From positions 398,456 to 441,363 of the forward strand of contig CAYOFQ010000001.1 in assembly GCA_964403585.1 (NCBI GenBank): a stretch of DNA of 42,908 nt. Reading direction: 5' to 3'. The DNA comes from an uncultured Gammaproteobacteria bacterium. Its GTDB lineage: Bacteria > Patescibacteriota > Microgenomatia > JALYQM01. The notes under the pieces were generated by a model. That model worked only from the letters and a program-made list of their open reading frames with translations, ran no database searches and was not told the DNA's origin. A program made the position numbers and the translations under genes. Shown in pieces: positions 14,273-36,295 of the stretch (its first letter is position 1; the number at the start of each line of letters is the position of its first letter).

Positions 14273-15484
14273 ATGAAAAAACTTCTCACCGTAATCTGCG
14301 CTATGGTATTTTTATTCGCCGGAACACCTGCTGCAGCACAAACGTATCCGACAGAATATCTTTCGGCAACCGAGTCGGCCGAAATGGAAGCTCAGGTTCC
14401 TGATGTGTTCCCTAAAGATGAGTATTACCGGGGAAAAATCATTTCTGCGGGTAAAGATGTGGTCAGTGAATTTCAAGGATATAAATCAGTAACCCAGGAT
14501 ATGACGGTAAAGTTACTGGACGGACCGGAAAAAAATAAAACTATCCAACTGAAATACAATCAGCTCCTGAATAAAGATAATATTGTGCGGCCGAAAGTAG
14601 GCGATACCGTGGTTATCACCAAATCAACACTTGGCGATGAGCCGGTCTATGTTATCAGTGATAAATACCGACTTGATACCATCAGTTACCTGTTAATAGC
14701 ATTTTTTATTATGGTGATTATTTTCGGACGCTGGAAAGGTCTTACTTCAACGGTTGGTTTGGGCGTCAGCATACTAATCATTGTTTATTTTATAGTGCCA
14801 AAAATAGTCAGCGGTAGTAATCCCTTTGTTATTACTATGATCGGAATCTTGATTATCAGTTTTACGTCATTGTATCTGGCGCACGGCTTTAATAAACGTA
14901 CAACTATCGCCCTGATCGCTACCTTAATTACGCTTGGACTCTCGATCCTGCTTGCGCGACTAGCAGTTGATCTGACGCAACTCAACGGATTAGGCAGTGA
15001 AGAAGCAATGTTTTTACAGGCCGGGGTGTTAGGGAGCCTTAATTTGAAAGGACTGTTATTGGGTGGAATTCTTATCGGTACCCTTGGCGTACTGGATGAT
15101 ATTACCACCAGTCAATCGGCAGCCATCGATGAAATTAGTAAAGCTAACCCGTCCCTCAAATTTGGTGAACTCTACGAACGGGGATTAAGTGTTGGACACG
15201 AACATATTGCTTCACTAGTTAACACGTTATTCTTAGCCTATGCCGGCGCTTCATTACCACTATTTATTTTGCTCTCTCAGGCGCATGGTCAACCGATGTG
15301 GGCGGTGGTCAATAGTGAACAGTTTGTCGAAGAAATCGTTCGGACAATCGTTGGGAGCATTGCGCTCATCTTGGGAGTTCCAATCTCTACGCTGCTCACC
15401 ATTTGTCTTTCACTCATAGAAAAATCGTCTTTTAGAGCGATAAATGGAGCTAATTGTGGTGTTCCAGAACTCAATTCTTCATAG
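14273..15484 (+). CDS. YibE/F-family membrane protein, 3' end remodelled by the island junction
   Basis: Signal peptide, a soluble domain, then about 7 TM helices typical of YibE/F. The last roughly 6-25 codons lie in AT-rich junction sequence and overlap the recombinase ORF in antisense. Confidence 0.75.
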   Translation: MKKLLTVICAMVFLFAGTPAAAQTYPTEYLSATESAEMEAQVPDVFPKDEYYRGKIISAGKDVVSEFQGYKSVTQDMTVKLLDGPEKNKTIQLKYNQLLNKDNIVRPKVGDTVVITKSTLGDEPVYVISDKYRLDTISYLLIAFFIMVIIFGRWKGLTSTVGLGVSILIIVYFIVPKIVSGSNPFVITMIGILIISFTSLYLAHGFNKRTTIALIATLITLGLSILLARLAVDLTQLNGLGSEEAMFLQAGVLGSLNLKGLLLGGILIGTLGVLDDITTSQSAAIDEISKANPSLKFGELYERGLSVGHEHIASLVNTLFLAYAGASLPLFILLSQAHGQPMWAVVNSEQFVEEIVRTIVGSIALILGVPISTLLTICLSLIEKSSFRAINGANCGVPELNSS

Positions 15485-17061
15485 GTAGGTGCCATCTGGA
15501 AAATGAGGCTGAAAAAGGTAGCTCTTTTGACTGAATCAGAGCCATTTAGCAACAAATCTTCAAGGTGTTCCAGAAAATATTTAACGGTCTCTGTTACCTC
15601 CACTATATCTATTGCCTTTTGCTTCTTTTTTAGCTTTTCCTCTTGTAGCTGAGCTATCTGATCCTCAATTTTTTCTAAATCTTCTTCCATATACTTAATA
15701 GCGGTTTCAGATGTTAAAACTCTTATCTTGTCTGCTATTAAACGGCCAGAGGTTTGCAGCTCCTTCATCTTAGTCTCAATGATTTCATTATCTTTATTCA
15801 TATTTGCTTGTCTCTTATCCCACTCTTCCAGAACTGCTTTCATTAACTTTTCTGCATATTTAGGAGTTATGTGTAAGCCTTTAACAAAACTAAGGATTGT
15901 TTGATCGAAATCTTTCTTTGATACCCGGAAATAGTGTCCACGTTTATTACAGTGATAAGCGGGATAGTATTTGCCTAGCTTTCCCCTCGAAGCACTGCCA
16001 AAAAGCGGTTTTTCACAATGAGGGCACATTACATAGCGTTTATATGGAAAATCAGGGTTTCTGACACCTTTTTTAAGCAAGTGCTCAGGAGGTCGTTTTT
16101 TATAAAACTTAATTTCACCATCCTCTTCGGTAATTGTTCTTTTATCTTTATTTGCTTTATTGAAAGTGTCTATGCTTACTAAACCTTCAAATTTACCTTT
16201 AATTGGCTGCCCTTCAGTCCAACGCTCAATATTAATTCCTGCATAAATAGGATTTTCGACAAATCTCAAAAATTGTTTTAGATTAAGAGGATTTCCGCCA
16301 CTTTTACCTATTACTTGTTTCTTATCCTGCTTACTTCTTATGAGTTTAGTTCTTGTTTTAAATCCAAGATTGTTTAGTTCTTCAATAATTTGTGAATCAT
16401 CCATTGAACCTCGGATACGCAGTTGAAACATCTTTCTTATCCAATCTGCTTCTTCTGGGTGAGGTGCTAAGATAACTCTTTTACCATGATCAGTTTCAAC
16501 CTTTTGATTAACATATCCAAATGGTGCCTGTCTGACTCTATAACCTAGTCTTACGTAACGGATCTCAGCTCCAATCATACGGGTCATGATATCTCGCATC
16601 TCATCTTTAGCTCGTTCAGCTTCAAGGATTTCAGCTTTTTTAGTTGGACTATACACACTCCAGTCGTAAGTTACATTTAGATGCTCCAAGGTATTAACTT
16701 GTTGAGTGCCAATAATGCCATATATATCAACTAACTTAACTCCATATTTGGTAAGTTGCATTTTTAAAAGATCGTATGAATATGATCCACCTCTAGTAAA
16801 ACGGTCAATAGATTTGATAATAAAGAGCTGAATGTCGTTTTTAGGATTTTTACAGTAATCAATAGCCTCTTGAACTGGTTGCTGTTCTTTAGAAGCTGAT
16901 TCCATGAAAACAAAAAATTTCTTGATATGTATGTTATGGGTCTGTGCGAAACGTTCGATTTGTTCTTTTTGCGCTTCAGGAGAATCACCTTGAAGACCTT
17001 GTTTAATAGAAGATACTCTTATTGCGGCTACTGCATTTTCTTGTATAGATAGGTTATTCAT
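15289..17061 (-). CDS. large serine recombinase (integrase)
   Basis: Resolvase-type N-terminus with AAIRVSSIKQ (catalytic Ser) and IKSIDRFTRG. A recombinase domain follows, then zinc ribbon CPHCEKPLFG..YHCNKRGH and a coiled coil (MKELQTSGRLIADKIR..LEKIEDQIAQLQEEK). The last roughly 57 codons are antisense to the yibE/F-like gene. Confidence 0.9.
   Translation of the reverse strand: MNNLSIQENAVAAIRVSSIKQGLQGDSPEAQKEQIERFAQTHNIHIKKFFVFMESASKEQQPVQEAIDYCKNPKNDIQLFIIKSIDRFTRGGSYSYDLLKMQLTKYGVKLVDIYGIIGTQQVNTLEHLNVTYDWSVYSPTKKAEILEAERAKDEMRDIMTRMIGAEIRYVRLGYRVRQAPFGYVNQKVETDHGKRVILAPHPEEADWIRKMFQLRIRGSMDDSQIIEELNNLGFKTRTKLIRSKQDKKQVIGKSGGNPLNLKQFLRFVENPIYAGINIERWTEGQPIKGKFEGLVSIDTFNKANKDKRTITEEDGEIKFYKKRPPEHLLKKGVRNPDFPYKRYVMCPHCEKPLFGSASRGKLGKYYPAYHCNKRGHYFRVSKKDFDQTILSFVKGLHITPKYAEKLMKAVLEEWDKRQANMNKDNEIIETKMKELQTSGRLIADKIRVLTSETAIKYMEEDLEKIEDQIAQLQEEKLKKKQKAIDIVEVTETVKYFLEHLEDLLLNGSDSVKRATFFSLIFQMAPTYEELSSGTPQLAPFIALKDDFSMSERQMVSSVEIGTPKMSAMLPTIVRTISSTNCSLLTTAHIG
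15458..15466. repeat. candidate attL core (GGTGTTCCA)
   Basis: The identical 9-mer recurs at 38657-38665, exactly where composition returns to host-like. The expected number of chance 9-mer matches between two 100-bp windows is only a few percent. Confidence 0.45.
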
Positions 17062-19198: not shown

Positions 19199-21796
19199 AT
19201 GTTGAATACTCTGGATTTATCGAATTTGTTTCCATCTTATTTAAATATCGAAACCTTAACCCTTGTCCTCACATCTCTCATAGTATATTTACTATTCACC
19301 TTAGTTTTAAAATCAATTAGCTTAAGACTATATTTTGCAAAGCAATATATTTTCCTTGAAATCAAACCAACTGACCGAACTTTAAAGACAGCATTTACTA
19401 CAACTCAATTATTTATAATGCTTCATTCATTAGAGACACCATATTCTTGGTGGGAGAAGTTTATACAGATCAGGAAAAATATTAGTTACGAACTAGTATC
19501 AACAAAGAACGAAGGGATACGATTTATTCTACGTGTACCTAAGGAAAACTCTTCCAGTATTAGAAAAGCCTTATTAGCTTATTTACCAGGAATTGAGATA
19601 AAAGAGGTTAATGATTACCTTCCCAACACGACAGATACTTCCTCAGTCATACGAGAGTTCACTTTAAGTAATTTATTTGTCTATCCGTTATCGAAACAAG
19701 AAACATTGAATCAATATGACCCACTTGCGTACTTAACCGCCCATATGACTAAGTTGCAGGTAAATGACCTCATAATGTTACAGTTCACTAGCATTCCAAT
19801 ACACGAAAGCACACATGCGAGCAAAGCAGATTATATTAATTCCTTAAAAAAGAAATTATTAAATAATGAAGATATTTCTGATTTATTAGTAAGAAGCAGC
19901 TTCAGAAGAGTGATAGATCTTATCGCTAGCTCAATCTTATTTATCGTACTTACTCCAATAACTTTAGTTTCATGGCTGTTCACTAATACAAAAGACCCTT
20001 TTCCCTCTTGGGTGTTTGAAAGTGTGAACAAGAGAACTCAAAAAGATTTAGGAGAAGTCAAACGTGAGTTATACGAAAATATTGGAGATAAACTTAGTCA
20101 GCCACTTTTTGAAAGTAGAGTTAGTGTTTTCATTAGCATTTCCAACAAGGAAAATGCAATTGAACGTTTGCAAGGGATCAAATCCTCCTTTGACACTTTT
20201 TCTTCATCACACCAATCCCTCAAATTAAAAACTTCAATTTCCAATATTCTAAAAAGCAATTTACTCAAGAACTTAGATTATTTCTTTTTGAAAAAGAGAT
20301 TTTCATTTTTTGAAAGTAATACAATTCTGTCGGCTACAGAATTATCGTCTTTATTTCACCTTCCCTACACCAGCACAACTAAAACCGAAGACTTACTTCA
20401 GGTTAAAAGTCCTAAATTACCAGCTCCCATTTCTCTAAAGAAATCTGATTTAGAGCTTGATATTACGTTTGCTCATAATACTTATGGCGAAACAACTACC
20501 CCGATTGGGTTAACTCTAGAGGAGAGGAGACGTCACGCTTATATTATTGGTGCTACTGGTACAGGAAAGACTACACTCCTATTACAAATGATTAATCAAG
20601 ATATAAAAAAAGGTAATGGGATTGCAGTAATTGATCCTCATGGTGATTTGGCCGAAAGATTGCTTGAAGTTATTCCTAAAGAACGAATCAAAGATGTTGT
20701 TTACTTTAATCCTTATGATGTTGAGTTTCCAATTGGGCTAAATGTTCTGGAAATACCAGAAGGATTATCTAATGTCGAACTACAACGGGAAAAAGACTTT
20801 ATAACCTCAACACTAATATCAATATTCCACAAGCTCTATGATGCCAGATATTCGGGACCAAGAATGGAACATATATTGAGAAATGTTATTTTAACTGCTC
20901 TTGAACAAGAAAAACCAACACTTTTCACTATCTACAATTTGCTAACTAATACCAAATATAGAAAAGATGTAACAAGTCTATTGAACGATGAAATTTTAAA
21001 GACTTTTTGGAAGAATGAGTTCGAGAAGCTTGGTTCATTCCAAAAAGCTGAACAAATATCTCCCATTACAAATAAACTAGGAAGATTCTTAACTACCGGA
21101 ATGACGAGAAATATCCTTAACCAGACTGAGAGTAAACTTGATTTTGAAGATATTATGAATGGTCGAAAAATTCTTATATGTAACTTATCTAAAGGTAAAA
21201 TTGGAGAAGATACAGCTTATTTCTTGGGTGGACTTCTAACTGCCAAGATACAACTTACTGCATTACGCCGAGTACATGTGCCAGAAAAAAAGAGAACGGA
21301 CTTTTTCCTATACATAGACGAGTTTCAAAATTTTGCCACAATGTCTTTTGCTCAAATACTCTCAGAAGCTAGAAAATATAGGTTGAGTGTTATCCTAGCT
21401 CATCAGAATACTGTACAGATAGAGAATGATCTTCTAGAAACAATTATTGGTAATAGCGGTACTCTTATTTGTTTTAGAACAACGAGCCCGAAAGATGAAG
21501 ATAAACTATTACCTGTTTTTTTACCCGAAGTAGAAAAAGGTCAAATGGCTAATATCCCTTCCTACAATTTTTACATGAAGATAAATGCTATCCAGCCTCA
21601 ATCTACTTTTAGTGGAGAAATAGAAAATTTCGTTATACCTTCAAATGAAGAAGTGAGAAGAGAAGTAATTAAACACTCACAAACAAAGTATGGTCAAACG
21701 CCAAAACCTCTACATGCAAAAAATAAAACTTCCACTGAAAAAGTTATCACAAAAATTGATAATACAGCAAATTTATTTGAGCAAATAAGACCCTAA
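19199..21796 (+). CDS. type IV secretion coupling protein (VirD4/TraG/TraD-like ATPase)
   Basis: N-terminal TM segments, Walker A IIGATGTGKTTLL, DPHGDL, Walker B FFLYIDEFQNF and ILAHQN. Confidence 0.8.
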   Translation: MLNTLDLSNLFPSYLNIETLTLVLTSLIVYLLFTLVLKSISLRLYFAKQYIFLEIKPTDRTLKTAFTTTQLFIMLHSLETPYSWWEKFIQIRKNISYELVSTKNEGIRFILRVPKENSSSIRKALLAYLPGIEIKEVNDYLPNTTDTSSVIREFTLSNLFVYPLSKQETLNQYDPLAYLTAHMTKLQVNDLIMLQFTSIPIHESTHASKADYINSLKKKLLNNEDISDLLVRSSFRRVIDLIASSILFIVLTPITLVSWLFTNTKDPFPSWVFESVNKRTQKDLGEVKRELYENIGDKLSQPLFESRVSVFISISNKENAIERLQGIKSSFDTFSSSHQSLKLKTSISNILKSNLLKNLDYFFLKKRFSFFESNTILSATELSSLFHLPYTSTTKTEDLLQVKSPKLPAPISLKKSDLELDITFAHNTYGETTTPIGLTLEERRRHAYIIGATGTGKTTLLLQMINQDIKKGNGIAVIDPHGDLAERLLEVIPKERIKDVVYFNPYDVEFPIGLNVLEIPEGLSNVELQREKDFITSTLISIFHKLYDARYSGPRMEHILRNVILTALEQEKPTLFTIYNLLTNTKYRKDVTSLLNDEILKTFWKNEFEKLGSFQKAEQISPITNKLGRFLTTGMTRNILNQTESKLDFEDIMNGRKILICNLSKGKIGEDTAYFLGGLLTAKIQLTALRRVHVPEKKRTDFFLYIDEFQNFATMSFAQILSEARKYRLSVILAHQNTVQIENDLLETIIGNSGTLICFRTTSPKDEDKLLPVFLPEVEKGQMANIPSYNFYMKINAIQPQSTFSGEIENFVIPSNEEVRREVIKHSQTKYGQTPKPLHAKNKTSTEKVITKIDNTANLFEQIRP

Positions 21797-21841
21797 CCGA
21801 CTAGGGTAATAACTTGATAAATTAGATTGAAATAAAGGCAT

Positions 21842-21883
21842 TTCTTATTTAGAATATAGTCTCTATATTCTTATAAATAAGAA
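21842..21883. repeat. imperfect 42-bp inverted repeat (candidate oriT or operator)
   Basis: TTCTTATTTA-GAATATAG-tct-CTATATTC-tta-TAAATAAGAA. It lies between the coupling-protein stop and the relaxase-like gene, and no T-tract follows. Confidence 0.4.
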
Positions 21884-21940: not shown

Positions 21941-22643
21941 ATGATACTACCTACTATTACTAATAAACAGAAAGAAATACTCTTACTATTATATAGATTC
22001 AGATTCCTCAATCGCATCCAGATACAAAAGCTTCTCAAAAATAAAGACTACAAAAATATAAATGTATGGTTAAAGGATCTGACGGATAAAAATTACACTA
22101 AACGGATCTTTGAGAAGAAAGCAGGTATAAATCAGTCAGCTATATATTTTATTTCTAAAAATGGAATTAAGTTTTTTCGCTCGCATCCGGGATGCGAGGG
22201 AGAATATCTCAAGAAGTTATCTCAAGAAGTTATCTCAGGAGGGTAGAAGATCAGAAGTATTCATAAAGCAATGTATCTTAATTGCAGATATATACCTAAA
22301 GCTTCTAAATGAAAATGACCCTTCATTCAAATTCTATACACAGACCGACTTTCCAGTTAAGGGACTTATAAGGGATTTACTGCCAAGCTTTGCATTCATA
22401 AAACAAAAAAACACGAAAATCGAGCACTATACGTGCGAGATTTTAAAAGAAGGAATGCCACGATATGCTATTCGCGCCAGGATTCAAAAATATATAGAGT
22501 TCTTTGAAAGAAGTGATTCGAGAACTTATTTATATTTCTACTGTCCTAATCAGAAAATATTAGACTACACAAGAAAATATTCAGAAAACGCCGCAAACGA
22601 ACAGCAAGATCTGGAATTTTCATTTATCTTACTATCAGCCTAA
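21941..22643 (+). pseudogene. replication-relaxation (Replic_Relax)-family protein, frameshifted by a 13-bp tandem duplication
   Basis: The N-terminus KQKEILLLLYRFRFLNRIQIQKLL is a typical wHTH of this family. ORFs 21941-22246 and 22161-22643 join into one roughly 229-aa frame if one 13-bp copy is removed. Confidence 0.65.
22205..22237. repeat. perfect tandem duplication of TATCTCAAGAAGT (2 copies plus a 7-nt partial third)
   Basis: 22205-22217 equals 22218-22230, and 22231-22237 repeats the first 7 nt. The period of 13 is not a multiple of 3. Confidence 0.9.
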
Positions 22644-22678: not shown

Positions 22679-24079
22679 ATGATCAGCAAAGATGAGATCA
22701 ATAAAAAATCAGAAGAGTTTGAAATAAATCATGCAAACGTTGAAAGAGACTATGTATTTGGCTGGGTTATAGCGGGTTTATTTACAGTAAGTAACTTGAA
22801 AGATGTTATTTTTCTAAAAGGTGGGAATGCTCTACGCAAAGGATATTTTGAAAATACTAGATTCTCTTCTGATCTCGATTTTGGAATTCCAGATGATATA
22901 ACTCAAGAATCTCTTCTGAATGAAATAAATAGCATTTGTGAGCATATAACCAAAAAAGCAGGAGTCGAATTTATTATTGAGGACAACAAAGTTGAAGAAA
23001 AGTTTTCAGCAACTGATACACCTATTCCTGGACTTAAAGTCTACGAAGCTAGAGTATATTTCAAAGACTTTTATGGGAACTCTGATCATATAAGAATTAA
23101 AATATCGATGGATATCACTCGTTTTGATAAAGTTTTATTACCTATCCAAACAAGACAACTAATACATCCATATTCAGATTATGCTGACGTAACATGCGAA
23201 ATAAGATGCATGAAGCTGGAAGAAATAATTGCAACAAAACTTAAGTGTCTTTTACAACGGCAACATGCACCAGACCTGTTTGATTACGCATATTCAATTA
23301 ATACTCTAGGTGGGGAACTGAACAAAGAAGAGGTTGTTAGAACTTTAGTACAGAAAACTATTTTCGAGAGAAATCCACATGTATTAAAGAAAATACTATT
23401 AAAAACATCCTTTGATTATTTTAAGGAATATTGGACGAAAACTCTTATATGTGCTCAACAATTCATGATGGGGGTTGATGATGCAATAAATATTTTTTTA
23501 TCAGACTTGGAAGCTCTATTTAATATCTTTCCTGATGATGGATATGCTGAGTTTGCATATTTTGGACCTGAACTAAGAATGCCTATTATGCATGCAGCAA
23601 GAACTCAAACCCTATTAAAAATACAATATAACGGATCTGAAAGACTTATTGAGCCTTATTCTCTTAAATATCTTCAACGTAGAGATGGCAAGGAACGTGA
23701 ATATTTTTATGGCTATAACCGTACCGGTGGTTCTAGTCCTCCTGGAATAAGATGTTTCGTATCAGAAAACGTAGAAAGTATAGAAAATACAGAAGAGAAA
23801 TTCGATATTAGAGAAGGATATGCAATTGAATTATCAAAGTCGGGTGAATTACCAGAAAACAAATACCTCTTTGATCCTAACAAGCCAGTACACCCTCCAA
23901 CTCGAAGAAGAGTAAGAGCATGGCGTTCTTCATCTTCAATTAAATATGTATATCAGTGTTCTTATTGTGGAAAGAAATTTTATAAAACAACTCAGGCTAG
24001 TAGACTAAACCCTCATAAAGACAAATATGGTTATCCGTGCAGTGGAAGAACTGGGTATTATGTAACTACAAAATATTAA
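22679..24079 (+). CDS. AbiEii/AbiGii-type nucleotidyltransferase fused to a WYL-like domain and a C-terminal zinc ribbon/finger
   Basis: AbiEii signatures are ERDYVFGWVIAGL, FLKGGNALRKGYF, RFSSDLDF and LEEIIATKLKCLLQR. The C-terminal extension carries KIQYNGSERLIEPYSLKY..EYFYGYN..IRCFVSENVESIE (WYL-like) and CSYCGKKF..H..PCSG. Confidence 0.7.
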   Translation: MISKDEINKKSEEFEINHANVERDYVFGWVIAGLFTVSNLKDVIFLKGGNALRKGYFENTRFSSDLDFGIPDDITQESLLNEINSICEHITKKAGVEFIIEDNKVEEKFSATDTPIPGLKVYEARVYFKDFYGNSDHIRIKISMDITRFDKVLLPIQTRQLIHPYSDYADVTCEIRCMKLEEIIATKLKCLLQRQHAPDLFDYAYSINTLGGELNKEEVVRTLVQKTIFERNPHVLKKILLKTSFDYFKEYWTKTLICAQQFMMGVDDAINIFLSDLEALFNIFPDDGYAEFAYFGPELRMPIMHAARTQTLLKIQYNGSERLIEPYSLKYLQRRDGKEREYFYGYNRTGGSSPPGIRCFVSENVESIENTEEKFDIREGYAIELSKSGELPENKYLFDPNKPVHPPTRRRVRAWRSSSSIKYVYQCSYCGKKFYKTTQASRLNPHKDKYGYPCSGRTGYYVTTKY

Positions 24080-24082
24080 ATC

Positions 24083-27000
24083 CTACTTTCTTCTTCGAAT
24101 TAGTAGGATAACAAGTATTGTAGTAATAACAGCAAATATTCCAATACTCCAAAGGTATATTGGAGAATAAAATACATTTTGGGGTTTAATCTTAATCTCA
24201 AGAGAAAACTCTCTAACGTCTCCAGTTAGATTAAGGGCTTGCTCTCCTTCATAACCATTGTAAGCAATAATTACTCGATGATCACCTTTCTCTACGTTAT
24301 TAAATATTGCATATCCATCTTTATCACTTGTAGTTTCTTGTACTCTTGAGTGCATAGTTACTTTTGCTCCTTCGACTGGATTACCTTGTTCATCAATCAC
24401 TCTTACTTTTACTGTATAGCCTTCAGTATCGACTATTTCTTCCATTGCTTCCTTATCTACATTTTCAGAAGTTGTCGTTGGATCATTCGTTGAATTTATA
24501 CCACTACTATCTAAATCGTCCTGAGTGAGTGGAGTAGATTCTAAAGTTGAACTTGTAAATTCTAAATTGTTATAAGAAAAAGCTGATTTAGTTGTCGCTT
24601 TCATCTCATTAGACCAATCTCCCGGTTTGCACCCATTACCACCTCTCACTTTAAAGTAATAAGTAGTATTTGGCTTCAGCTCCTTCACCAAATAAGTCAT
24701 TCTGCTTTCAGACTTTATTCCTAGATTGTCTGCCCCATAGATATACTCACCCGATTTAGTACCATATTTGATAGCATATCTATCTACAGGATCAGCTGCC
24801 TCTGTAAAGTATAAGAGAATTGAGTTTGAATTCTGAGCTATAGCTCCGTATAACCAAGGTGGTTGAATTCCAACATCATCATGACATTCATTATCATCTT
24901 TATCGTCATCATCATTTGAGCTAGACGAGTTAGGGGCTATAGTGAACGCATCTGAAGCATAATTTCCACTACTTGTAGTGTTTCCATTTGAATCTGTCGC
25001 ACGAACAAAAATTGTATGAGAAGTTCTAGATGACTCGGGTGGAGTACATGAAAATGTTTCAGACGCTTCATCAAAACTACCATCATCGGCAATGCAGCTA
25101 CTCCAGCTTCCGCTTGTACTATCTATCTGATATTCAACTGAAACTACCGTACCTACAGTATCCGTTGCAGTTCCAGTAATTGTAGGGGTATTATCTGTTG
25201 TAGGATCAGGGGAAATAGGATTTAGAGTTATAGAAGGTGAGGTAACATCTTTTTCCACTTCAAAATTAACAGTGGAATAACCTCCAGTATAAGTAAAAGA
25301 TATTTCTCCACTCGAATTAGAAGTACAATACCCTCCTGAGCAACTTCCACCTGTTACATTTTGGCCTAAAACGTTATTTACTTTTACTGAATACTGACGA
25401 TTAGGTTGGAGATCCCCAACGGTATGTACCGTAGAGGCAGATCCTATTGATGAAGACTCTTCGGACCATACCTTTTTATATGTTCCTGATGTATCCCAAG
25501 TAGTTATAGTAATGTCCATCCATTCTGAATAATCTCCTGCTCCAAACCCGCCAGACGGTGTTACTGTTAAATCAGCCGTAGTTCCAGAGACAGTTTGAGT
25601 ATTTCTAAATTTGCCATCTTCATATACTCTTACATCTCCATTAATATCGATTTCGTCCGTTCCCATTGTATATGGAGGTTGGTATTCATAGGCTCCAATA
25701 TCTGGAGTACCATAAATTGGATTTCCAATATAATCAACGGTTAATCCTACGTCCGTACCGGAATCAATAGCTGGGGAGAGATAAGTGAGTTGAAAATCAG
25801 TTGGAACTGAATAAGATCCCGAACCATTTGTAAACAATGGATCGTTATTTATTGAGTTGGCCTCATTTGATGAGTGATAAGTTGTCCACGATACATCATT
25901 AACTGCATCAGTACTGAAAAACTTATTATTATCCAGTGGCTTATATAAATTATAGTCAAGTGTTGTGTATGCTGGCTGGGTATCTAGTAACTCGCGCGGT
26001 TTGCCTCCTCCAAAAATTCCGTTATTGACAACAAAGCTTCCACCATTTGTTTTTCTATAATAGACATTGCTTCTTACTGATGGAGTTGATACTGTATTTC
26101 CTCTGAAAGTATCGCCAGATGCATATCCGTTTCGCCAGGTAACACCATTATAAAAGGCATTATTTGAACCATCGCTTACATCACCCGATCCTTGATTGTA
26201 GTTACCAATAGATACACAATAGTAGCACTTTATATCGTTAGCCAAATCGTGTGGTAAAAATCCACCACCATCCGTTACAGTATTAAGAGTCCCATTATAA
26301 GAAGCTTCACTGTATCGATAAGTTATATCATAAGATGACTCTCTGGCGAGAAACCCAATACCTAAGTTGTTATTAGCTGTACAGTTATTGTGTTCAATAT
26401 CATTAGAAGTATCCTCCTGTACAAATCCATTAATTGAATTGTTATTTGCTGTGCACCTGTTAAATGTAATATTATGAGATGTGCCACTTACCTGAAAAGC
26501 TCCATAGCTAGTGGCATTAGAGACATCGGTGTCATTTACAGTGATATCTGAAGAATCTGTAAAAAGGACACCTGCCGTTCCAGATGAAATTGAAACGTCC
26601 TCAATAATTCCTGTCGTAACCGTATTTAAAGTTATTCCTCCTGCGTGGGGTGAATCAGTGATTGTAACATCCGATCCAGTAGACACTGTAAACGCAGCTA
26701 GCCAGCTTGTGTTTGTTAATGTTAGGTCTGTCGCATTATTTACTTGTATTCCCGGGTTAAGTGTAGAGTTTTGAATAGTTACATTGCTATTACTGGAACC
26801 AGTAAGATGAATAGCATTTCTGGCTGGTGTTCCACTTGTAAGCGTCACCGAATCAAAAGTCACATTACTCAAAATACTGCTAGACCACATAACGTATCCA
26901 TATCCACCCATATTGCTAGTGATGTTCTTAAATTGAAGGTTAGATCCAGCTCTAATAATTGTTCCTATATTTGTCGAAGCCGAGGTACCAGTATAATTAA

Positions 27001-27421
27001 ATGTCAGACCGTCAACTATAATATTAGACCTACTATTAGTATCTAATAAATATCCAGATGTGATAGCAACTAAAGGTGTCTCACTTGGTACTTTTGCATA
27101 AGTAATCTCATTCCCGACTCCAGATCCACCTGAAGGTAAAGTCATGACTTCTGTATAATTACCTCCTTGAGAGCTAAATAGTATTTGATCTCCAGCTACA
27201 AATGTCGCAAGTTTGAATTGAGCCATATTTAATGCTGTATTAGCGTTATTAGGACTAGTAGCATTTGCTTTGTTAGCTGCCGTAACAGTTCCGTCAGCTC
27301 TTACATAGTAGGTTGCAGCATTAACAGACGTAGGTAAAATAAGAAAAATTATTCCTATAAAAATAATAGAAAATAATATTTTTGAAAATCGATCTAAAAC
27401 TTTGGGCATTTTACTAAGCAT
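24083..27421 (-). CDS. giant surface protein with right-handed beta-helix repeats, FN3-like and CarboxypepD_reg-like domains and a C-terminal membrane anchor
   Basis: N-terminal signal/anchor ILFSIIFIGIIFLILPTSVNA. Repeated N-rich PbH1-like units (FNRCTANNNSINGF, HNNCTANNNLGIGF). FN3-like PNTTYYFKVRGGNGCKPGDWS. YTVKVRVIDEQGNPVEGAKVTMHS..DKDGYAIF. C-terminal TM plus RRRK. The track's start at 27445 is TTG, and the first ATG is at 27421. Confidence 0.75.
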   Translation of the reverse strand: MLSKMPKVLDRFSKILFSIIFIGIIFLILPTSVNAATYYVRADGTVTAANKANATSPNNANTALNMAQFKLATFVAGDQILFSSQGGNYTEVMTLPSGGSGVGNEITYAKVPSETPLVAITSGYLLDTNSRSNIIVDGLTFNYTGTSASTNIGTIIRAGSNLQFKNITSNMGGYGYVMWSSSILSNVTFDSVTLTSGTPARNAIHLTGSSNSNVTIQNSTLNPGIQVNNATDLTLTNTSWLAAFTVSTGSDVTITDSPHAGGITLNTVTTGIIEDVSISSGTAGVLFTDSSDITVNDTDVSNATSYGAFQVSGTSHNITFNRCTANNNSINGFVQEDTSNDIEHNNCTANNNLGIGFLARESSYDITYRYSEASYNGTLNTVTDGGGFLPHDLANDIKCYYCVSIGNYNQGSGDVSDGSNNAFYNGVTWRNGYASGDTFRGNTVSTPSVRSNVYYRKTNGGSFVVNNGIFGGGKPRELLDTQPAYTTLDYNLYKPLDNNKFFSTDAVNDVSWTTYHSSNEANSINNDPLFTNGSGSYSVPTDFQLTYLSPAIDSGTDVGLTVDYIGNPIYGTPDIGAYEYQPPYTMGTDEIDINGDVRVYEDGKFRNTQTVSGTTADLTVTPSGGFGAGDYSEWMDITITTWDTSGTYKKVWSEESSSIGSASTVHTVGDLQPNRQYSVKVNNVLGQNVTGGSCSGGYCTSNSSGEISFTYTGGYSTVNFEVEKDVTSPSITLNPISPDPTTDNTPTITGTATDTVGTVVSVEYQIDSTSGSWSSCIADDGSFDEASETFSCTPPESSRTSHTIFVRATDSNGNTTSSGNYASDAFTIAPNSSSSNDDDDKDDNECHDDVGIQPPWLYGAIAQNSNSILLYFTEAADPVDRYAIKYGTKSGEYIYGADNLGIKSESRMTYLVKELKPNTTYYFKVRGGNGCKPGDWSNEMKATTKSAFSYNNLEFTSSTLESTPLTQDDLDSSGINSTNDPTTTSENVDKEAMEEIVDTEGYTVKVRVIDEQGNPVEGAKVTMHSRVQETTSDKDGYAIFNNVEKGDHRVIIAYNGYEGEQALNLTGDVREFSLEIKIKPQNVFYSPIYLWSIGIFAVITTILVILLIRRRK

Positions 27422-27514
27422 ATTATCTTTATTTAATAACCTCAATAAGATAAAAGATAACTTTTTCTCTTAATATAAATCTACACTACTAAAGCAAAAC
27501 TTTCCATATATGAA

Positions 27515-28195: not shown

Positions 28196-29938
28196 ATGAG
28201 AGTAACAACACTTCTTCTCTTTATTTGCTTCTTAACGTTTTATAATCTTTCTCCCGCTTTTGCACAAGAGCCTCCACCTACTCCTGCGCCATTACCACAA
28301 GTTCAATGGACAAATGATTTTACAGTAGAAGAGAAACCTTCAGTCATTATTACAATACTACAAGACTTCATTCATGGCTTTGACTCGTTCATGGGTGGTT
28401 TTATTTTCTACACTCCTGATCCATTTGGGGAAACAATCAAACTTAAAGATGGGACAGAAATCCCAGGAGTAACAAAATATCGGGATATTTTTAATCAGAT
28501 TGCCATACCTATTTCAGCAATTGCTATCGCAGTTATCGCTGTCACTCGGCTTGGTTCTGATAATGTGCAGGAACTAAAGACATTCGGTTTGCGCTTTCTA
28601 GTTACTATTATTTTGTTTATTACGATTCCGTTTGTTCTTGGCTACAGCATTCAGTTTAATAATCTACTTGTTGAAAAGATAAATACTACACAAGAATTCA
28701 CTGGTTTTTTACATAATTATCTCGATACCTCTCAACAAGAAATACAAAACGGTGCTAATTCTGAAGCATATGGTATTCCCTCATATGACATTTCCATGAC
28801 AGGAGGAGTATTTAGGTCACTCGGAAAATTTATTGTTCAGACATTTCTCTTTATCCTGACATTTTTATTTCTACTTGGAGGATTTGTTTACATTGGCTTT
28901 CAATTTGTAATTCGATTCGCGACATTGCTATTTTTAGGCGTTCTGTACCCAATTATTCTTCCTTTCGCTCTTTCTGAGAAGACTCATCAGATTGTAAACA
29001 CCTTTTTTAAAACATGGTTTACATTTCTCATCCAACAACCAGCTTTTGTACTGGGTTTTGCAATTGCTAACGATATTTTTTCCAGCATTTTAACTTCACA
29101 AGGACCCTCAGTTGGCATGTTATTTTTCTACACCGGATTTCTCTTTTTCCTTGGAGGGGTAAATATGCTAACTGGAAGAATTTTTGGTGATACATGGGGA
29201 ATGTTTGCTACACATATGCAAGCCGCTATTGCAACCCGTTCAGTAACAACTCCTATAGCTTCATGCATCAATGACTTTAAACGAGGACTAGTGGGAGGTA
29301 GTATCAGTCATTCTGCTGGTCATTATCTTAATGAACAATGGAAGAAACGCACAGCAAAGAATGAAGAAGATCCATCCACCAATGGTTCATCAGGTAATGA
29401 TTCAACTCCTCCTTCCAATGGCTCTTACCGTCATTCAAAAAAAACAAATGAGTCATCACCATTTACTCAGGCACTTTCTCAAAAAGGTTTTGAAGTACAA
29501 ACAGAAAATCACAAGCAGGGAATCATTACTGTTACCGGGGAGGCTTATAAATATGACGACAGTAAAACAGGTATGACTTCTATTTATCCAACACGGTTAG
29601 AAGCTATTCAAGATGGGGTACCTGAACCCAAACTGGAGACAATTCAGCTTGAGCAGGATAGATTTATTGATTTATCCAGCTTTAATAAGAAAAACCCCAA
29701 TCCTCACAACTACAATGCTATGCAGGAATCACAAAGAAGAGGTAAAAGCCTAACGTATGCCTATGTGAATGAATCCAGTCCGCCACAAAGGATTAAACAT
29801 TTCTTAGAAGTTTCACAAAAGAGAAATAATGCCTTTGGTATTAAAGGTGTAATCGTTGACAGGCAGGGCACACAATCATCCGACCATATTATTCGGATGT
29901 ATACCTATAAAAACTATGAAAAGCGTCAGAATATATAA
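28196..29938 (+). CDS. VirB6/TrbL-like polytopic T4SS membrane protein
   Basis: Signal peptide, at least 6 TM helices and a hydrophilic C-terminal tail. Its position between the pilin and VirB4 genes fits. Start taken at ATG 28196 (MRVTTLLLF). Confidence 0.55.
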   Translation: MRVTTLLLFICFLTFYNLSPAFAQEPPPTPAPLPQVQWTNDFTVEEKPSVIITILQDFIHGFDSFMGGFIFYTPDPFGETIKLKDGTEIPGVTKYRDIFNQIAIPISAIAIAVIAVTRLGSDNVQELKTFGLRFLVTIILFITIPFVLGYSIQFNNLLVEKINTTQEFTGFLHNYLDTSQQEIQNGANSEAYGIPSYDISMTGGVFRSLGKFIVQTFLFILTFLFLLGGFVYIGFQFVIRFATLLFLGVLYPIILPFALSEKTHQIVNTFFKTWFTFLIQQPAFVLGFAIANDIFSSILTSQGPSVGMLFFYTGFLFFLGGVNMLTGRIFGDTWGMFATHMQAAIATRSVTTPIASCINDFKRGLVGGSISHSAGHYLNEQWKKRTAKNEEDPSTNGSSGNDSTPPSNGSYRHSKKTNESSPFTQALSQKGFEVQTENHKQGIITVTGEAYKYDDSKTGMTSIYPTRLEAIQDGVPEPKLETIQLEQDRFIDLSSFNKKNPNPHNYNAMQESQRRGKSLTYAYVNESSPPQRIKHFLEVSQKRNNAFGIKGVIVDRQGTQSSDHIIRMYTYKNYEKRQNI

Positions 29939-30725
29939 AGATGATATCAGGCAGCATATTTTAAGAAGTCTGTTTTTTACAGATAATACCCTGTTTATAA
30001 GTGGTGGGGTAATTCTTGCTATTACGCTGTATATCTGTCTGAAATATATTGCCCATGTTTTTAGTTGGAATATCTATATTGCGTCTCTCATTGTTCTTGA
30101 AATCGCCTTCATAGGATTTATCACACAAAAAGTAGATAATCAGCCAATTTATAAAGTTATTCCAAGAGGGTTCATGTTTAAGAGAAGTAAAAAGAAACAG
30201 AGACAGAAGGAACTGGAATCATATTTTGTTGATTTTGCAATTCAGGATAATTTGATCATTCGTAAAGACAGCATTATCCAGATGTTGGAAGTGGAGCCAT
30301 TTGATATTTCTCTTCTTAACGATCAGGATCGGGAGCACTTTTTCTTAAAACTTAAGCAAGTGATTCATATATTACCTTCTCAAGTGCAATTTATTGTGAA
30401 GAAAGAAAAAGCAAAAGTGGAAGATTACTCAAAACATATATTTTCGTTATATGCAAATTCTAACGAAAGACGAGAGTCATTAATTGCTGAATATACTCAA
30501 AATTTATCCACATTAATTAGTGAGACTAACTTTATGTCTACTCATCACTACGCGGCTTTTTCGGTTTCGTGTAATCCATCAAGGCAATATGAAAAAATCA
30601 ATGCCATCAAAAAACTGCAAGATATGAGTATGCGTTTTGCTTCTGCCCTTGCTAGTTGCAATATTACCGCTCGACCCTTACAAGGCGAAGAATTAATTAA
30701 TTTTGCAAGAAATACACTACGATGA
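29916..30725 (+). CDS. T4SS membrane protein (VirB3-like TM hairpin plus VirB4 N-terminal-like region)
   Basis: Two adjacent TM helices (GGVILAITLYICLKYI and IYIASLIVLEIAFIGFI). These are followed by IIQMLEVEPFDISLLNDQDREHFFLKLKQVIHILPSQVQFIVKK, which resembles the start of monoderm VirB4 proteins. ATGA overlap with the next gene. Confidence 0.45.
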   Translation: MKSVRIYKDDIRQHILRSLFFTDNTLFISGGVILAITLYICLKYIAHVFSWNIYIASLIVLEIAFIGFITQKVDNQPIYKVIPRGFMFKRSKKKQRQKELESYFVDFAIQDNLIIRKDSIIQMLEVEPFDISLLNDQDREHFFLKLKQVIHILPSQVQFIVKKEKAKVEDYSKHIFSLYANSNERRESLIAEYTQNLSTLISETNFMSTHHYAAFSVSCNPSRQYEKINAIKKLQDMSMRFASALASCNITARPLQGEELINFARNTLR

Positions 30726-32845
30726 CACTACAATCCCTACCAAACGCAATCAAGAAGACTGCTCTGAATGTCTATAACGACGTAAGGACATTTAGTCTAA
30801 GCCGTAAACTGCAAGATCACTTAGAGCATTTATCTTATGAAAAGAGTAAAGAAGAGTATGAACTGAAGAAATTAAAACGTGAATATAGTCTTTATAAAAC
30901 CAAAAGCAAAGGAATACAAACCATTGAAGAGCACTTTTTCAATGGAGAGCCAAAACTTCATCAGAATAATCTTACTCTAGCTTTACGTGATGAAATTAAA
31001 CGACTCATGAAGATTATAGAAACACAACAGGAACTTATTGAAAAAACGCCATTTATTACCAGTCAGCTGCTTTTAATTCATAAACCAACACTTATTAAAA
31101 CAAAGAATCCCATAAAACTTACAAGAAATTATCTGAAGTTAAGAAAAGAGATGAGTGACTACAACAAAGCAGTTGATACGGCTCGTAGAGCTGAATTTCA
31201 TCTTACTTTGGAAAAGAATAATAATGAACTAACTGTAGAACGTGATGGAACGAAGATATACAAAAGTGAATACTTACAAGAATACAGTTCATCTCTTCAA
31301 GTTGGAGAAAAACTAAAACGATTTTATTACCTTGCCGATATTCCAGCCTACTTAAGCCCGTATGTATTTTTCAGGCTATTAAATTCATCATTGCCATTTA
31401 CCTTAAGTATCTTTGTTGAACCTTCTCCAAGTAGTGAGCTATTAAAGAAAGCACGCCAGCGATTATCAGTGCTTGAGATGCAACAGAATGACCGACTAAA
31501 ACAAGGCAAAATCAGAGATCAACAAATAGATAAAAATATCGAAGAAGTTATGAGTTTTGTTGATGAACTGGTTCATGAAGCAGAAAAAGGCGTTTTGTAT
31601 TCTCTTTATCTGCAACTAGAGGCCGAAGATGAAAAAGAATTATCAAAAATCCACAAACAACTCCAAAATATTACCGGAACGATGGACATGACGTTCAATC
31701 AGTACACCTATGGTCAGAAGAAGGCCTTTAAGAACTTTTTACCCTTCAATCTTGATCACGTACAAGAAAATAGAATTTTGCAGTCTACAGCAGCATCATA
31801 CTTATTGCCTTTTGTTTCAAAACAACTCAATGATCCAGAAGGAGTATTTATGGGAGTTAATGCGTATAACAATAGCTTGGCTTTCGTAAATCCCTTTACT
31901 TCAAGAAATAACAATATCAATATCTTTGGTGTCTCAGGGTCTGGAAAAAGTGTGACTGCGAAAATACTGATGAACAGGCTCTATATGAGAGGAGTACAAA
32001 TTATTGTTATTGATCCAGAGGGTGAATACGTTGATATTGCAAAAGCATTGGGAGGAGAAGTTATCTCATTCTCAAGAGAAAACGGAATTAATCCTTTTTA
32101 TGTTTCAAGTTTACAAGAGAATGATATCTTGGATCACATATCAACTTTGAAAACGTTCTTCAAATTCTTTATTCCTCAAAATCATTATGACGGTGCGTTT
32201 TTGGATGAAGCATTGATTAAGTTATATGACCAAGGTAGTCCATCGTTTGAAAACCTTCTTGAACTATTAAAGAAACATCCAATGCAAAAAGATTTGAGTG
32301 TTTTATCTACAGGAAGCTTACGAGGAGTTTTTAATTCTACGAGAAAGTTAGAGCTCAACAACGATATCATTGTTCTTGATCTCCATGATTTGAAAAAAGA
32401 CGAGAAACGAGATCCTGCAATGTATTTGTTAACCTCTTTAATCTGGAATCTAGTGAATAAGAAGAATGACAAAAAGAGAATGTTATTTATTGATGAAGCT
32501 CACAAACTTCTTGTTGATCCTGAAGTAGCTGTCTTTTATAGAGAGTTGGTCAAACAAGCTCGAAAGAGAAATGTTGGAGTCGTTTCTATAACTCAAGACG
32601 TAGAAGATTTCTTAGATAGTGAATATGGAAAAGCTATTATCACCAATTCCGAAACAAAAATATTACTTAAGCAGTCATATGCCACACTTGGAGATATCGG
32701 GACAATTTATCCAATGACTGATGAAGAAAAACAACAACTTGGACATTTAGCCATAGGAGAAGTTGTTCTGTTTAGAGAAAGTGAACATGTAAGAATTAAT
32801 ATTATTGTCCTTCCGTTTGAACAACCGTTAGTATTTACTTCTTGA
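30722..32845 (+). CDS. VirB4/TrbE-like T4SS ATPase
   Basis: Walker A is GVSGSGKSV, Walker B is MLFIDEAHKLL, and VSITQDVEDF is present. There is an N-terminal coiled-coil-rich region. Confidence 0.85.
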   Translation: MTLQSLPNAIKKTALNVYNDVRTFSLSRKLQDHLEHLSYEKSKEEYELKKLKREYSLYKTKSKGIQTIEEHFFNGEPKLHQNNLTLALRDEIKRLMKIIETQQELIEKTPFITSQLLLIHKPTLIKTKNPIKLTRNYLKLRKEMSDYNKAVDTARRAEFHLTLEKNNNELTVERDGTKIYKSEYLQEYSSSLQVGEKLKRFYYLADIPAYLSPYVFFRLLNSSLPFTLSIFVEPSPSSELLKKARQRLSVLEMQQNDRLKQGKIRDQQIDKNIEEVMSFVDELVHEAEKGVLYSLYLQLEAEDEKELSKIHKQLQNITGTMDMTFNQYTYGQKKAFKNFLPFNLDHVQENRILQSTAASYLLPFVSKQLNDPEGVFMGVNAYNNSLAFVNPFTSRNNNINIFGVSGSGKSVTAKILMNRLYMRGVQIIVIDPEGEYVDIAKALGGEVISFSRENGINPFYVSSLQENDILDHISTLKTFFKFFIPQNHYDGAFLDEALIKLYDQGSPSFENLLELLKKHPMQKDLSVLSTGSLRGVFNSTRKLELNNDIIVLDLHDLKKDEKRDPAMYLLTSLIWNLVNKKNDKKRMLFIDEAHKLLVDPEVAVFYRELVKQARKRNVGVVSITQDVEDFLDSEYGKAIITNSETKILLKQSYATLGDIGTIYPMTDEEKQQLGHLAIGEVVLFRESEHVRINIIVLPFEQPLVFTS

Positions 32846-35587: not shown

Positions 35588-36295
35588 TTAGTTTGTAAGT
35601 ATTCTCTCTACAGATGAATCAGCCAAAATCTCCATAGAATCATAAATCTTAAAATCGGAATGACTAGGAGTTAAGAGTTGTAAATCTGTACAGGCAAGTA
35701 CTACAGTATGCACATCATGAACTCTAAAATTCTCTATTATCTTAAGAAGCTTAGCTTTATCTTCATCGCCATTTCTGCTTAACACCAATCTATTAATTAG
35801 TTCTCCTACTTCTAGCTGGTCATTTTCGTTTGGAAGCGCAACTTGTATATTTTTTGATTCTAGCGGTTTTTGGTACAGACCATGCTTTATAGTAGTTAAT
35901 GTAGCAAGTATACCTACCTTATCAATATTTTGTTCTTTCAAGAAATTAGCAGTCTCCTCAACAATGCTAAGAACTGGTATATTTACTGCTTTTCTTACTT
36001 CTTCAATAAATATATGGACTGAATTACATGGTATTACTAAAAAGTCAGCACCACCTGATTCTAATCGCTTAGCAGCTTCAACTAAGTAAGGAATGTATCT
36101 TTCTTCACCAATAGCAGATTGGATAAGATCATTCTCAATCTTATATTGCATTGGGATACTCCACATTAATATAGGAGGACGTTGTTCCTTATTTCTTTGA
36201 TAGCACTTAAAAATAAGTCTTAAGTAAAATTCGCTTGTGGTTTCAGGCCCTAATCCACCGATAATTCCTATTGTTTTCATATTTATATTATACAT
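35588..36295 (-). CDS. aspartate/glutamate racemase-family protein
   Basis: MKTIGIIGGLGPETT, with the two catalytic Cys contexts VIPCNSVH and VLACTDL. The start may be ATG 36280. Confidence 0.85.
   Translation of the reverse strand: MYNINMKTIGIIGGLGPETTSEFYLRLIFKCYQRNKEQRPPILMWSIPMQYKIENDLIQSAIGEERYIPYLVEAAKRLESGGADFLVIPCNSVHIFIEEVRKAVNIPVLSIVEETANFLKEQNIDKVGILATLTTIKHGLYQKPLESKNIQVALPNENDQLEVGELINRLVLSRNGDEDKAKLLKIIENFRVHDVHTVVLACTDLQLLTPSHSDFKIYDSMEILADSSVERILTN

Follow-up and report, generated by a model that had tools for sequence, protein, structure and literature searches.

A solo AbiEii-type nucleotidyltransferase gene with a divergent WYL barrel and a CCHC zinc module: a candidate stand-alone toxin in an island resembling an integrative conjugative element

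The AbiE systems of Lactococcus lactis and Streptococcus agalactiae are abortive infection systems that were classified as type IV toxin-antitoxin (TA) systems and are now re-read as type VII. Antitoxins are reported to silence AbiE and MenT toxins by inducing their auto-phosphorylation (preprint 10.64898/2026.01.19.700257; PMC11375011). These nucleotidyltransferase (NTase) toxins are widespread, and the signal that activates them during infection is still unclear. Here, we describe a gene of this family located in a window of 42,908 nucleotides (42.9 kb, the whole stretch of DNA analysed) from an uncultured bacterium (contig CAYOFQ010000001.1, positions 398,456 to 441,363). It encodes a three-domain protein in which an AbiEii-type NTase is followed by a WYL-like barrel and a Cys/His zinc module, and no gene encoding AbiEi, the cognate antitoxin, adjoins it. 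This three-domain organization had been proposed by an initial annotation made from the sequence, and it holds. We favour a reading in which the protein acts on its own as a defence toxin, its NTase activity being coupled in cis to the binding of nucleic acid by the C-terminal module; taken as a whole chain, this reading has a probability of about 0.5.

Several characters link the window protein to AbiE: a DUF1814 NTase scoring above the Pfam gathering threshold, motifs I to IV, a Ser/Thr at the phospho-acceptor position, and mobile or defence contexts. Other characters separate them. The bicistronic arrangement with AbiEi (COG5340, a winged helix-turn-helix (wHTH) followed by a C-terminal domain) is not found, since the window gene has no adjacent AbiEi; the protein has about 170 additional C-terminal residues (297-466, WYL and CCHC); and its NTase core is 29% identical even to that of the classical relatives that bear a WYL domain.

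The N-terminal domain is, judging from its motifs, a DUF1814 NTase with intact catalytic residues. A search with PF08843 (AbiEii), which the initial annotation had suggested as a check, gave a match to residues 35-232 well above the cut-off (88.2 bits against 22.5, E=1.1e-24, Pfam), and the AbiEii profile of PADLOC covers residues 1-268 (E=1.9e-50). When the AlphaFold model of the full-length protein (predicted local distance difference test score, pLDDT, 76) was compared with the PDB by Foldseek, the best matches were MenT3/TglT (7c46, 6j7o) and MenT4 (6y56), at E ~1e-8; for the NTase fold, 7c46, 6j7o, 6y56 and 8xhr were matched at E 1e-8 to 1e-7 with a probability of 1.00. In this model, the NTase has a bilobed fold like that of MenT and AbiEii. 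These best structural matches, MenT3/TglT (Rv1045) and MenT4 (Rv2826c), are toxins of Mycobacterium tuberculosis that, unlike the window protein, are single-domain proteins of ~290 aa paired with MenA, and sequence identity is 16-18%. These two enzymes nucleotidylate tRNA 3'-CCA ends (preprint 10.64898/2026.01.19.700257). This reaction is the expected chemistry of the window NTase, which, when active, would nucleotidylate tRNA 3' ends.

The motifs of this enzyme class have been defined as a Pol-beta-type pair I/II (hGG...R.S/T.DhD), motif III (K..7..R) and motif IV (DxxD) (PMC3985639). When 31 full-length homologs were aligned, the invariant columns included G48, G49, R61, S63, D65, D67, D145, K187, R194, D199 and D202, and the AbiEii signatures quoted in the initial annotation proved to be real strings lying on such columns. 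The segment LKGGNALRKGYFENTRFSSDLDF aligns with the MenT4 motif FKGGTSLRK...RFSTDLDF, D65 and D67 are assigned by pattern as the metal-binding residues of motif II, and the motif III/IV pattern fits the KLxAaxxR and +DxxD of AbiEii. In S. agalactiae AbiEii, K173A, R180A and D192A each abolish toxicity (PMC3985639); mapped by motif pattern, the invariant residues of the window protein would correspond to residues essential for toxicity in AbiEii. Furthermore, S63 is located two residues ahead of the first catalytic Asp, the place taken by T65 in the AbiEii of S. agalactiae and by S78 in MenT3, both of which are reported to auto-phosphorylate upon antitoxin binding (preprint 10.64898/2026.01.19.700257; PMC11375011). 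S63 is, by its position in the motif, a candidate phospho-acceptor. All three domains are under purifying selection. Within the clade, mean pairwise column identity is 0.60 for the connector between NTase and barrel, against 0.74 for the NTase core and 0.68 for the WYL barrel.

The initial annotation had read a WYL-type barrel in the ~170 residues that follow the NTase. The fold was recovered; the extent was not, the barrel covering ~90 residues (297-385). No domain was found directly in residues 290-466 by Pfam or NCBIfam, and the plasmid homologs that are ~40% identical to the window protein have no Pfam WYL match either. A phmmer search with residues 290-466 found 418 representative proteins, among them intermediates (P0181, P0230, P0264 and others) at E 4e-20 to 5e-11. 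Against a cut-off of 21.8 bits, the Pfam WYL scores reach 37 for P0264, 29.7 for P0181 and 24.8 for P0230, and a homolog carried by a Rhizobium plasmid (L069) scores 27.5 bits. The motif R..EPYSL(R/K) and the strands that follow it are common to the window protein and to these WYL-scoring relatives. Modelled alone by AlphaFold, the C-terminal part (pLDDT 89) consists of one helix, a five-stranded barrel and a small beta module. The structure prediction that had been suggested as a check returned a WYL-like fold: the top 22 PDB matches of this model are all WYL proteins (DriD, BrxR, PafBC and CapW; 79-181 columns, Foldseek), Sm/Lsm proteins ranking next, and the matches restricted to the barrel span 79-94 columns with a root-mean-square deviation of 1.9-3.8 Å. 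When WYL relatives were sought among PDB sequences with a profile, nothing came up but MenT4, JHP933-like NTases and weak C2H2 fingers. In the WYL region, R322, E325, P326, Y327, L329, K330, E341, Y342 and G356 are invariant among the 31 homologs, and R358 nearly so. On these two independent lines, intermediates and predicted structure, residues 297-385 are taken as a genuine but divergent WYL barrel.

This barrel has the same fold as that of the wHTH-WYL-WCX regulators CapW, BrxR, DriD and PafBC. WYL domains bind single-stranded DNA (ssDNA) as activating ligand, and those of DriD, PafBC and CapW are reported to sense ssDNA and to pass the signal on allosterically (PMC11662680). Unlike these regulators, the window protein has neither wHTH nor WCX (no helix-turn-helix was found in it) and its output is an enzyme of the same chain; unlike in CapW, the arginines of RWHVR type are not conserved. 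Another parallel may be drawn with the PIF1 helicase of Thermotoga elfii and with WYL1-Cas13d, where a WYL domain that is attached to a nucleic-acid enzyme, or aids it, is described as a single-strand binding accessory. However, those enzymes are a helicase and a HEPN RNase, have no toxin logic and carry no CCHC module.

The segment that follows the barrel (residues 383-403) is invariant or nearly so in the 31 homologs, yet it is modelled without regular structure; it is a candidate docking or auto-inhibitory peptide. It leads to a basic linker (mean net charge of the whole linker +3.8) and to the C-terminal zinc module. The Cys/His zinc module foreseen in the initial annotation was borne out, the ligands of the pattern C427-x2-C430-x15-H446-x7-C454 being invariant in two alignments (31 and 46 sequences). 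Its mean net charge is +7.4 over 46 residues, and ~+11 together with the basic linker. All matches to zinc-finger families are below threshold (zf-C2H2, E 0.5; zf-BED, E 0.035-0.07; C2H2 fingers of the PDB, E>=0.013), and the resemblance of the first half of the module to a C2H2/BED knuckle likewise stays below threshold. The model of the module (pLDDT ~97) has three strands and no helix. Some AbiEii-WYL proteins of ~400 aa (P0246, P0249, P0252; L075, 2501-3739) stop after the barrel and have no zinc module; one of them is encoded on a linear plasmid of Streptomyces, where a further nucleotidyltransferase gene adjoins it. Because such proteins end after the barrel, the C-terminal module is itself composite.

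The absence of AbiEi was assessed with a profile built from 71 AbiEi sequences and run on six-frame translations. It found nothing in ~64 loci of the clade to which the window gene belongs (hereafter the solo clade) and nothing in the whole 42.9-kb window, which confirms for this stretch the initial statement that AbiEi is absent. A positive control is provided by one locus (L068), where this profile detects the AbiEi located beside a different, classical AbiEii. The flanks of each solo locus were inspected over ~6 kb on each side, and no recurrent AbiEi was found by Pfam and PADLOC among 43 upstream and 128 other neighbours. The ~40%-identical plasmid homologs from Sphingomonas, Sinorhizobium and Streptomyces are also devoid of AbiEi. 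When any conserved neighbour gene was sought in the solo clade, only generic HTH_3 regulators (13/53 loci, at variable positions) and serine recombinases (within 6 kb in 15/53 loci) recurred. As for a flanking RNA or a type III-like antitoxin, the window contains no Rfam match and no tRNA; moreover, in the solo loci the upstream gap is often too short (<=24 nt in many of them, behind unrelated upstream genes) and the neighbours too variable for a conserved flanking element.

Full-length relatives with 26-28% identity were detected by tblastn on Rhizobium and Thiodictyon plasmids, where they are annotated beside AbiEi. On plasmid pCB3090_2 of Rhizobium sp. CB3090 (WP_283060973/WP_283060974), the AbiEi gene (PF09407 and PF13338) runs 8 nt into the start of one encoding a 474-aa protein with AbiEii, WYL and CCHC domains, and Thiodictyon pTs417 has the same arrangement. 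This paired clade is uncharacterised and its toxins are annotated just as AbiEii/AbiGii toxin. A metagenome scan with this classical form gave 80 loci, of which 68, those with 700 nt or more upstream of the toxin, were assessed. In every one of them, an open reading frame (ORF) of ~268 aa stops no more than 80 nt from the start of the toxin gene and matches the AbiEi profile. Since a sister clade of the same architecture has AbiEi upstream in 68/68 loci, the fusion alone does not replace the antitoxin, and the idea of the initial annotation that it would make the toxin antitoxin-independent is not supported. Furthermore, because the WYL-CCHC module coexists with AbiEi in this clade, the fusion and the loss of the antitoxin are separate events, and the ancestral role of the module was not to replace an antitoxin.

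The solo and paired proteins have an identical domain order and share the motifs R..EPYSL(R/K) and F.PR..(I/V)EL. The zinc module is their best conserved part, with 57% identity against 29% for the NTase core, 28% for the WYL barrel, 26% for the linker and 23% for the connector, and it carries a net charge of ~+7 in both clades; its conservation, seen at the sequence level, suggests a common conserved nucleic-acid partner. Besides AbiEi, the paired clade is characterised by a WYL domain that Pfam scores (27.5 bits) and by a basic beta3-5 face. It has neither the GG..PG loop insertion that is conserved in the solo-clade barrel nor the E.PEN.YLFDPN.P linker motif of the sub-family to which the window protein belongs: of residues 383-403, only the common IEL/VEL is found.

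The architecture is widely distributed. At E<=0.001, we found 1,410 clusters of homologs with the full-length architecture, the best 120 of which have 97-100% query coverage and 64-75% identity. Genome loci amount to 62, including three complete chromosomes, and belong to Patescibacteria, Omnitrophota, Bdellovibrionales, Planctomycetes, Bacteroidota, Acidobacteriota, Proteobacteria and one archaeal metagenome-assembled genome. Complete genomes with the gene include CP129476.1, OY970341.1 and OZ241749.1. Solo genes are common in bacteria of the candidate phyla radiation and in their mobile elements. The clade is large and horizontally spread. Plasmid records were matched by tblastn in 33 of 72,556 cases, no phage record (50,697 searched) was matched at E <= 1e-5, and a viral fold library returned only generic small WYL/Sm-like proteins. 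The source annotation of the clade proteins goes no further than 'AbiEii/AbiGii toxin family'. The initial annotation had taken the architecture as not described; however, a WYL domain fused to an 'AbiGII-like nucleotidyltransferase (DUF1814)' was listed by Makarova et al. in 2014, who proposed that WYL regulates AbiG-type systems (PMC4012209), and Pfam scores AbiEii and WYL together on classical relatives. The domain fusion is therefore already catalogued and the toxin family is of a known kind. In the literature searched for solo or orphan AbiEii and for experimentally studied AbiEii-WYL proteins, nothing was found beyond this listing of domain architectures, and the antitoxin-less clade with its divergent WYL, its clade-specific linker motif and its CCHC finger appears to be undescribed.

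According to the reading that we favour, this three-domain toxin of the AbiEii/MenT family would work alone and would be carried by mobile elements, here an ICE-like island (integrative conjugative element, ICE). Once active, the enzyme would extend tRNAs (or other RNAs) by nucleotides at their 3' ends and halt translation, as do MenT1, MenT3, MenT4 and S. agalactiae AbiEii, the outcome being an abortive-infection-type defence of the host or of the element. Protection against phages by the solo gene would be consistent with its presence in defence islands, in an hsd operon and in mobile elements. Less certainly, the WYL-linker-zinc module, on whose barrel R322, K330 and R358 are conserved while other canonical arginines are replaced, would bind single-stranded nucleic acid in the manner of the WYL domains of DriD, PafBC and CapW. 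In the clade without antitoxin, this binding would be coupled in cis to the activity of the enzyme, so that the toxin may stay silent until ssDNA or RNA derived from phage or damage, for instance, appears as a signal. A tentative extension, which we hold to be rather doubtful, is that the C-terminal module took over the job of the antitoxin, holding the NTase inactive in cis until single-stranded nucleic acid from the infection releases it. The parts would be the divergent WYL, whose beta3-5 face is acidic, the linker bearing E.PEN.YLFDPN.P and a CCHC finger of basic charge, acting either by occlusion of the active site or by promotion of S63 auto-phosphorylation. The GG..PG insertion, the replaced arginines with the acidic barrel half, and the motif of residues 383-403 are, from sequence comparison, candidates for what compensates the missing antitoxin. 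If true, this would be the first ligand-gated single-chain toxin of AbiE/MenT type, and a direct trigger would be named for the toxin family.

Several points weigh against this coupling of binding to activity. PF13280 (WYL), which the initial annotation had named as a direct check, does not match the window protein even at E<=1 in Pfam. Solo-clade barrels have other residues in place of two arginines found in the 'R.DRI' strand of canonical WYL domains, and their beta3-5 half carries an acidic net charge (-1.8, versus +1.2 in the paired clade); because of this loss of basic residues and this acidic half, the ligand of the solo clade may differ from ssDNA. The toxicity, substrate and ligand of clade members are all inferred. 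An identity of 59-75% across phyla, as seen within the solo clade, is more than is usual for a defence gene that evolves fast. Finally, the coexistence of the WYL-CCHC module with AbiEi in the sister clade leaves room for a module that may serve substrate binding rather than sensing.

The gene is located in a low-GC island (~15289-38700, approximate limits) with ~31-38% GC versus 40-51% in the flanks. Judging from its predicted genes, this island has the gene set of an ICE, of which the toxin gene is cargo (Table 1). It also encodes an APH-like kinase, an HTH_3 regulator, a TrbC/VirB2 pilin, a VirB4-like ATPase and an M23 peptidase, and its further cargo comprises RibD_C, Asp/Glu racemase, CN hydrolase, nucleoside 2-deoxyribosyltransferase and PLD-like nuclease genes. 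Neither a tRNA gene nor att repeats were identified for the island. As stated in the initial annotation, the gene upstream of the toxin is a frameshifted gene of Replic_Relax type: its two ORFs (21941-22246 and 22161-22643) are separated by a perfect 13-nt tandem duplication, TATCTCAAGAAGT, at 22205-22237 (2.5 copies, 100% identity), and the read-through protein of 229 aa reaches 26.1 bits for a gathering score of 25.3. Since the duplication is identical in contigs from two wastewater metagenome runs, it is not a one-off assembly error. No intact relaxase-type gene was found in the island and, the Replic_Relax gene being split, the element may have lost self-transfer. The toxin gene begins 35 nt after the Replic_Relax gene, and because the only good promoter match upstream of the toxin precedes the Replic_Relax gene, both genes are likely to be co-transcribed.

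Table 1. Features of the toxin gene and of its surroundings (coordinates in the 42.9-kb window)
Feature	Coordinates	Strand	Remarks
Large serine recombinase	15289-17061	-	
VirD4/TraD-like coupling protein of the type IV secretion system (T4SS)	19199-21796		
Sigma-70-like promoter match, TTGAAA-17-TAGAAT (10/12)	21827..21855	+	Consensus match only
Replic_Relax-family gene, split in two ORFs	21941..22643	+	Upstream neighbour, outside the toxin system
Solo AbiEii-WYL-CCHC gene, complete	22679..24079	+	466 aa and stop codon; ORF list
DUF1814/AbiEii (MenT-like) NTase domain, residues 1-268	22679..23482	+	Pfam, PADLOC, Foldseek
Motifs I and II, LKGGNALRKGYFENTRFSSDLDF, residues 46-68 (G48 G49, R61, candidate phospho-acceptor S63, D65/D67)	22814..22882	+	
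Motifs III and IV, EEIIATKLKCLLQRQHAPDLFDY, residues 181-203 (K187...R194, D199..D202)	23219..23287	+	
Helical connector between NTase and WYL, residues 233-296	23375..23566	+	AlphaFold secondary structure
Divergent WYL (Sm-like beta-barrel) domain, residues 297-385: one helix, then five strands	23567..23833	+	
Conserved linker motif of the sub-family, IELSKAGE.PEN.YLFDPN.P, residues 383-403	23825..23887	+	31-homolog alignment
Basic Ser/Arg-rich linker, residues 404-420	23888..23938	+	Variable length, low model confidence
CCHC zinc-binding module, residues 421-466 (ligands C427, C430, H446, C454)	23939..24076	+	

Two other genes of the island deserve mention. The VirB4/TraC-like ATPase is distributed over two ORFs that overlap by 4 nt, 29856-30725 (289 aa), with the N-terminal TraC_F_IV match, and 30722-32845 (707 aa), with the P-loop; this layout may be natural, or it may mark a second break in the transfer machinery. 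Convergent with the toxin gene and ending 4 nt from its stop codon, 24083-27445 (-) encodes a predicted surface protein of 1,120 aa with a signal or transmembrane N-terminus, a right-handed beta-helix, fn3 and CarboxypepD_reg domains and a C-terminal transmembrane segment, which is probably an adhesin of the conjugative element.

Elsewhere, the solo gene is surrounded by integrases and by Mrr, Shedu SduA, AbiU2 and T4SS genes, and the genes found upstream of it or otherwise close by are of many kinds (methylases, HTH_3, YhcG nuclease, RelA_SpoT, M48 peptidase, ThiF, racemase and others). In two loci, L056 (2616-9231) and L058 (73-6729), it is inserted between hsdM and hsdR of a type I restriction-modification (R-M) operon, with gaps of 8-12 nt and -39 nt; hsdM encodes 758-770 aa with an N-terminal HTH of MerR type and hsdR 984-985 aa. 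This recalls PrrC, a latent tRNA-damaging enzyme whose gene lies within a type I R-M (prr) locus and which is restrained until phage attack. The likeness to PrrC/RloC is in the position of a single gene between hsdM and hsdR; the enzymes are unrelated, an anticodon nuclease versus an NTase, and only 2 of ~53 loci have this context. Nucleoside 2-deoxyribosyltransferase and Asp/Glu racemase genes also recur near the solo gene in unrelated genomes (Syntrophobacteraceae and Saccharibacteria; L004-L006, 4418-4861; L019, 1132-1818) and in the island of the window (35588-36295 and 37062-37508), which hints at a common mobile cargo.

The main alternative to a sensing module is that the WYL-linker-zinc part is an arm recruiting the substrate (tRNA, other RNA or ssDNA), which would raise activity or set specificity, toxicity being then controlled by S63 auto-phosphorylation, low expression, proteolysis or absence of the target from uninfected cells. 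We see this as possible, at odds well short of even. It would account for the coexistence of the module with a full AbiEi in the 68 sister-clade loci, and a basic zinc module that is more conserved between clades than any other part (57% vs 23-29%) would fit a universal nucleic-acid target. Precedents are reported in the WYL accessory of the Thermotoga elfii PIF1 helicase (bioRxiv 10.1101/163188) and in WYL1, described as enhancing Cas13d (PMC5935466). However, MenT/AbiEii toxins modify tRNAs without such a module, the structurally closest WYL domains (DriD, CapW, PafBC and BrxR) belong to allosteric sensors, and a recruiting arm leaves unexplained how a toxin without antitoxin is tolerated. 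That tolerance would be explained by an unlinked or unrecognised antitoxin acting in trans, such as a distant AbiEi/MenA-like protein, a host Ser/Thr kinase-phosphatase pair or a tiny flanking gene, which would count against a stand-alone toxin and which we judge unlikely. The solo loci were inspected over ~6 kb per side, the phospho-acceptor S63 is kept, small unannotated ORFs lie near many loci, and MenA antitoxins are described as diverse and not all related to AbiEi (PMC11375011). Yet no neighbour family recurs besides the HTH_3 regulators and the serine recombinases, many loci have little or no upstream gap and unrelated upstream genes, and a single gene that is widely mobile would often arrive without an unlinked partner.

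The genetic context of the window raises two further explanations. The toxin might serve the conjugative element rather than host defence, by acting on transferred ssDNA or on RNAs of the recipient soon after entry, in establishment or anti-defence, or as an addiction or exclusion factor: the gene follows Replic_Relax at 35 nt, near the T4SS coupling protein, on the same strand and inside the T4SS module; a homolog of this coupling protein is found within 6 kb in 4/53 loci, with M23 peptidase and VirB4-like genes near few; and ssDNA, which WYL domains bind, is the intermediate of conjugative transfer. This is improbable, since most homolog loci are devoid of conjugation genes and have R-M, TA, Shedu, AbiU2 and recombinase genes around the toxin instead, addiction would require an antitoxin and none is present, and matches are scarce in plasmid records and nil in phage records. 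The initial annotation had also considered that the broken wHTH gene upstream could be a divergent antitoxin, whose disruption it found puzzling. If the gene were of AbiEi type, its disruption would have unleashed or inactivated the system. Its position directly upstream on the same strand, a winged-helix-like N-terminus and a non-significant AbiEi_4 match of the second ORF (E=0.11) are the grounds for this idea, to which we give hardly any credit. The read-through protein passes the Replic_Relax score and matches no AbiEi family at E<=0.1, the 71-sequence AbiEi profile does not match it, no homolog lies beside the toxin in other loci (tblastn, best E 1.2), and its place next to the T4SS coupling protein fits a role of relaxase type. 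The gene was rejected as an AbiEi antitoxin on these grounds: Replic_Relax membership, no similarity to AbiEi and no partner homolog elsewhere.

These data have consequences for the search and for the study of AbiE/MenT toxins. Defence-system finders that demand AbiEi and AbiEii together will overlook solo genes. Moreover, WYL domains are known to take single-stranded nucleic acids as ligands, and the clade offers a handle both on how a solo toxin is tolerated and on the signal that activates it. The contrast between solo and paired clades (no AbiEi found versus AbiEi in 68/68 loci) constitutes a natural experiment that may be exploited by swapping domains and motifs.

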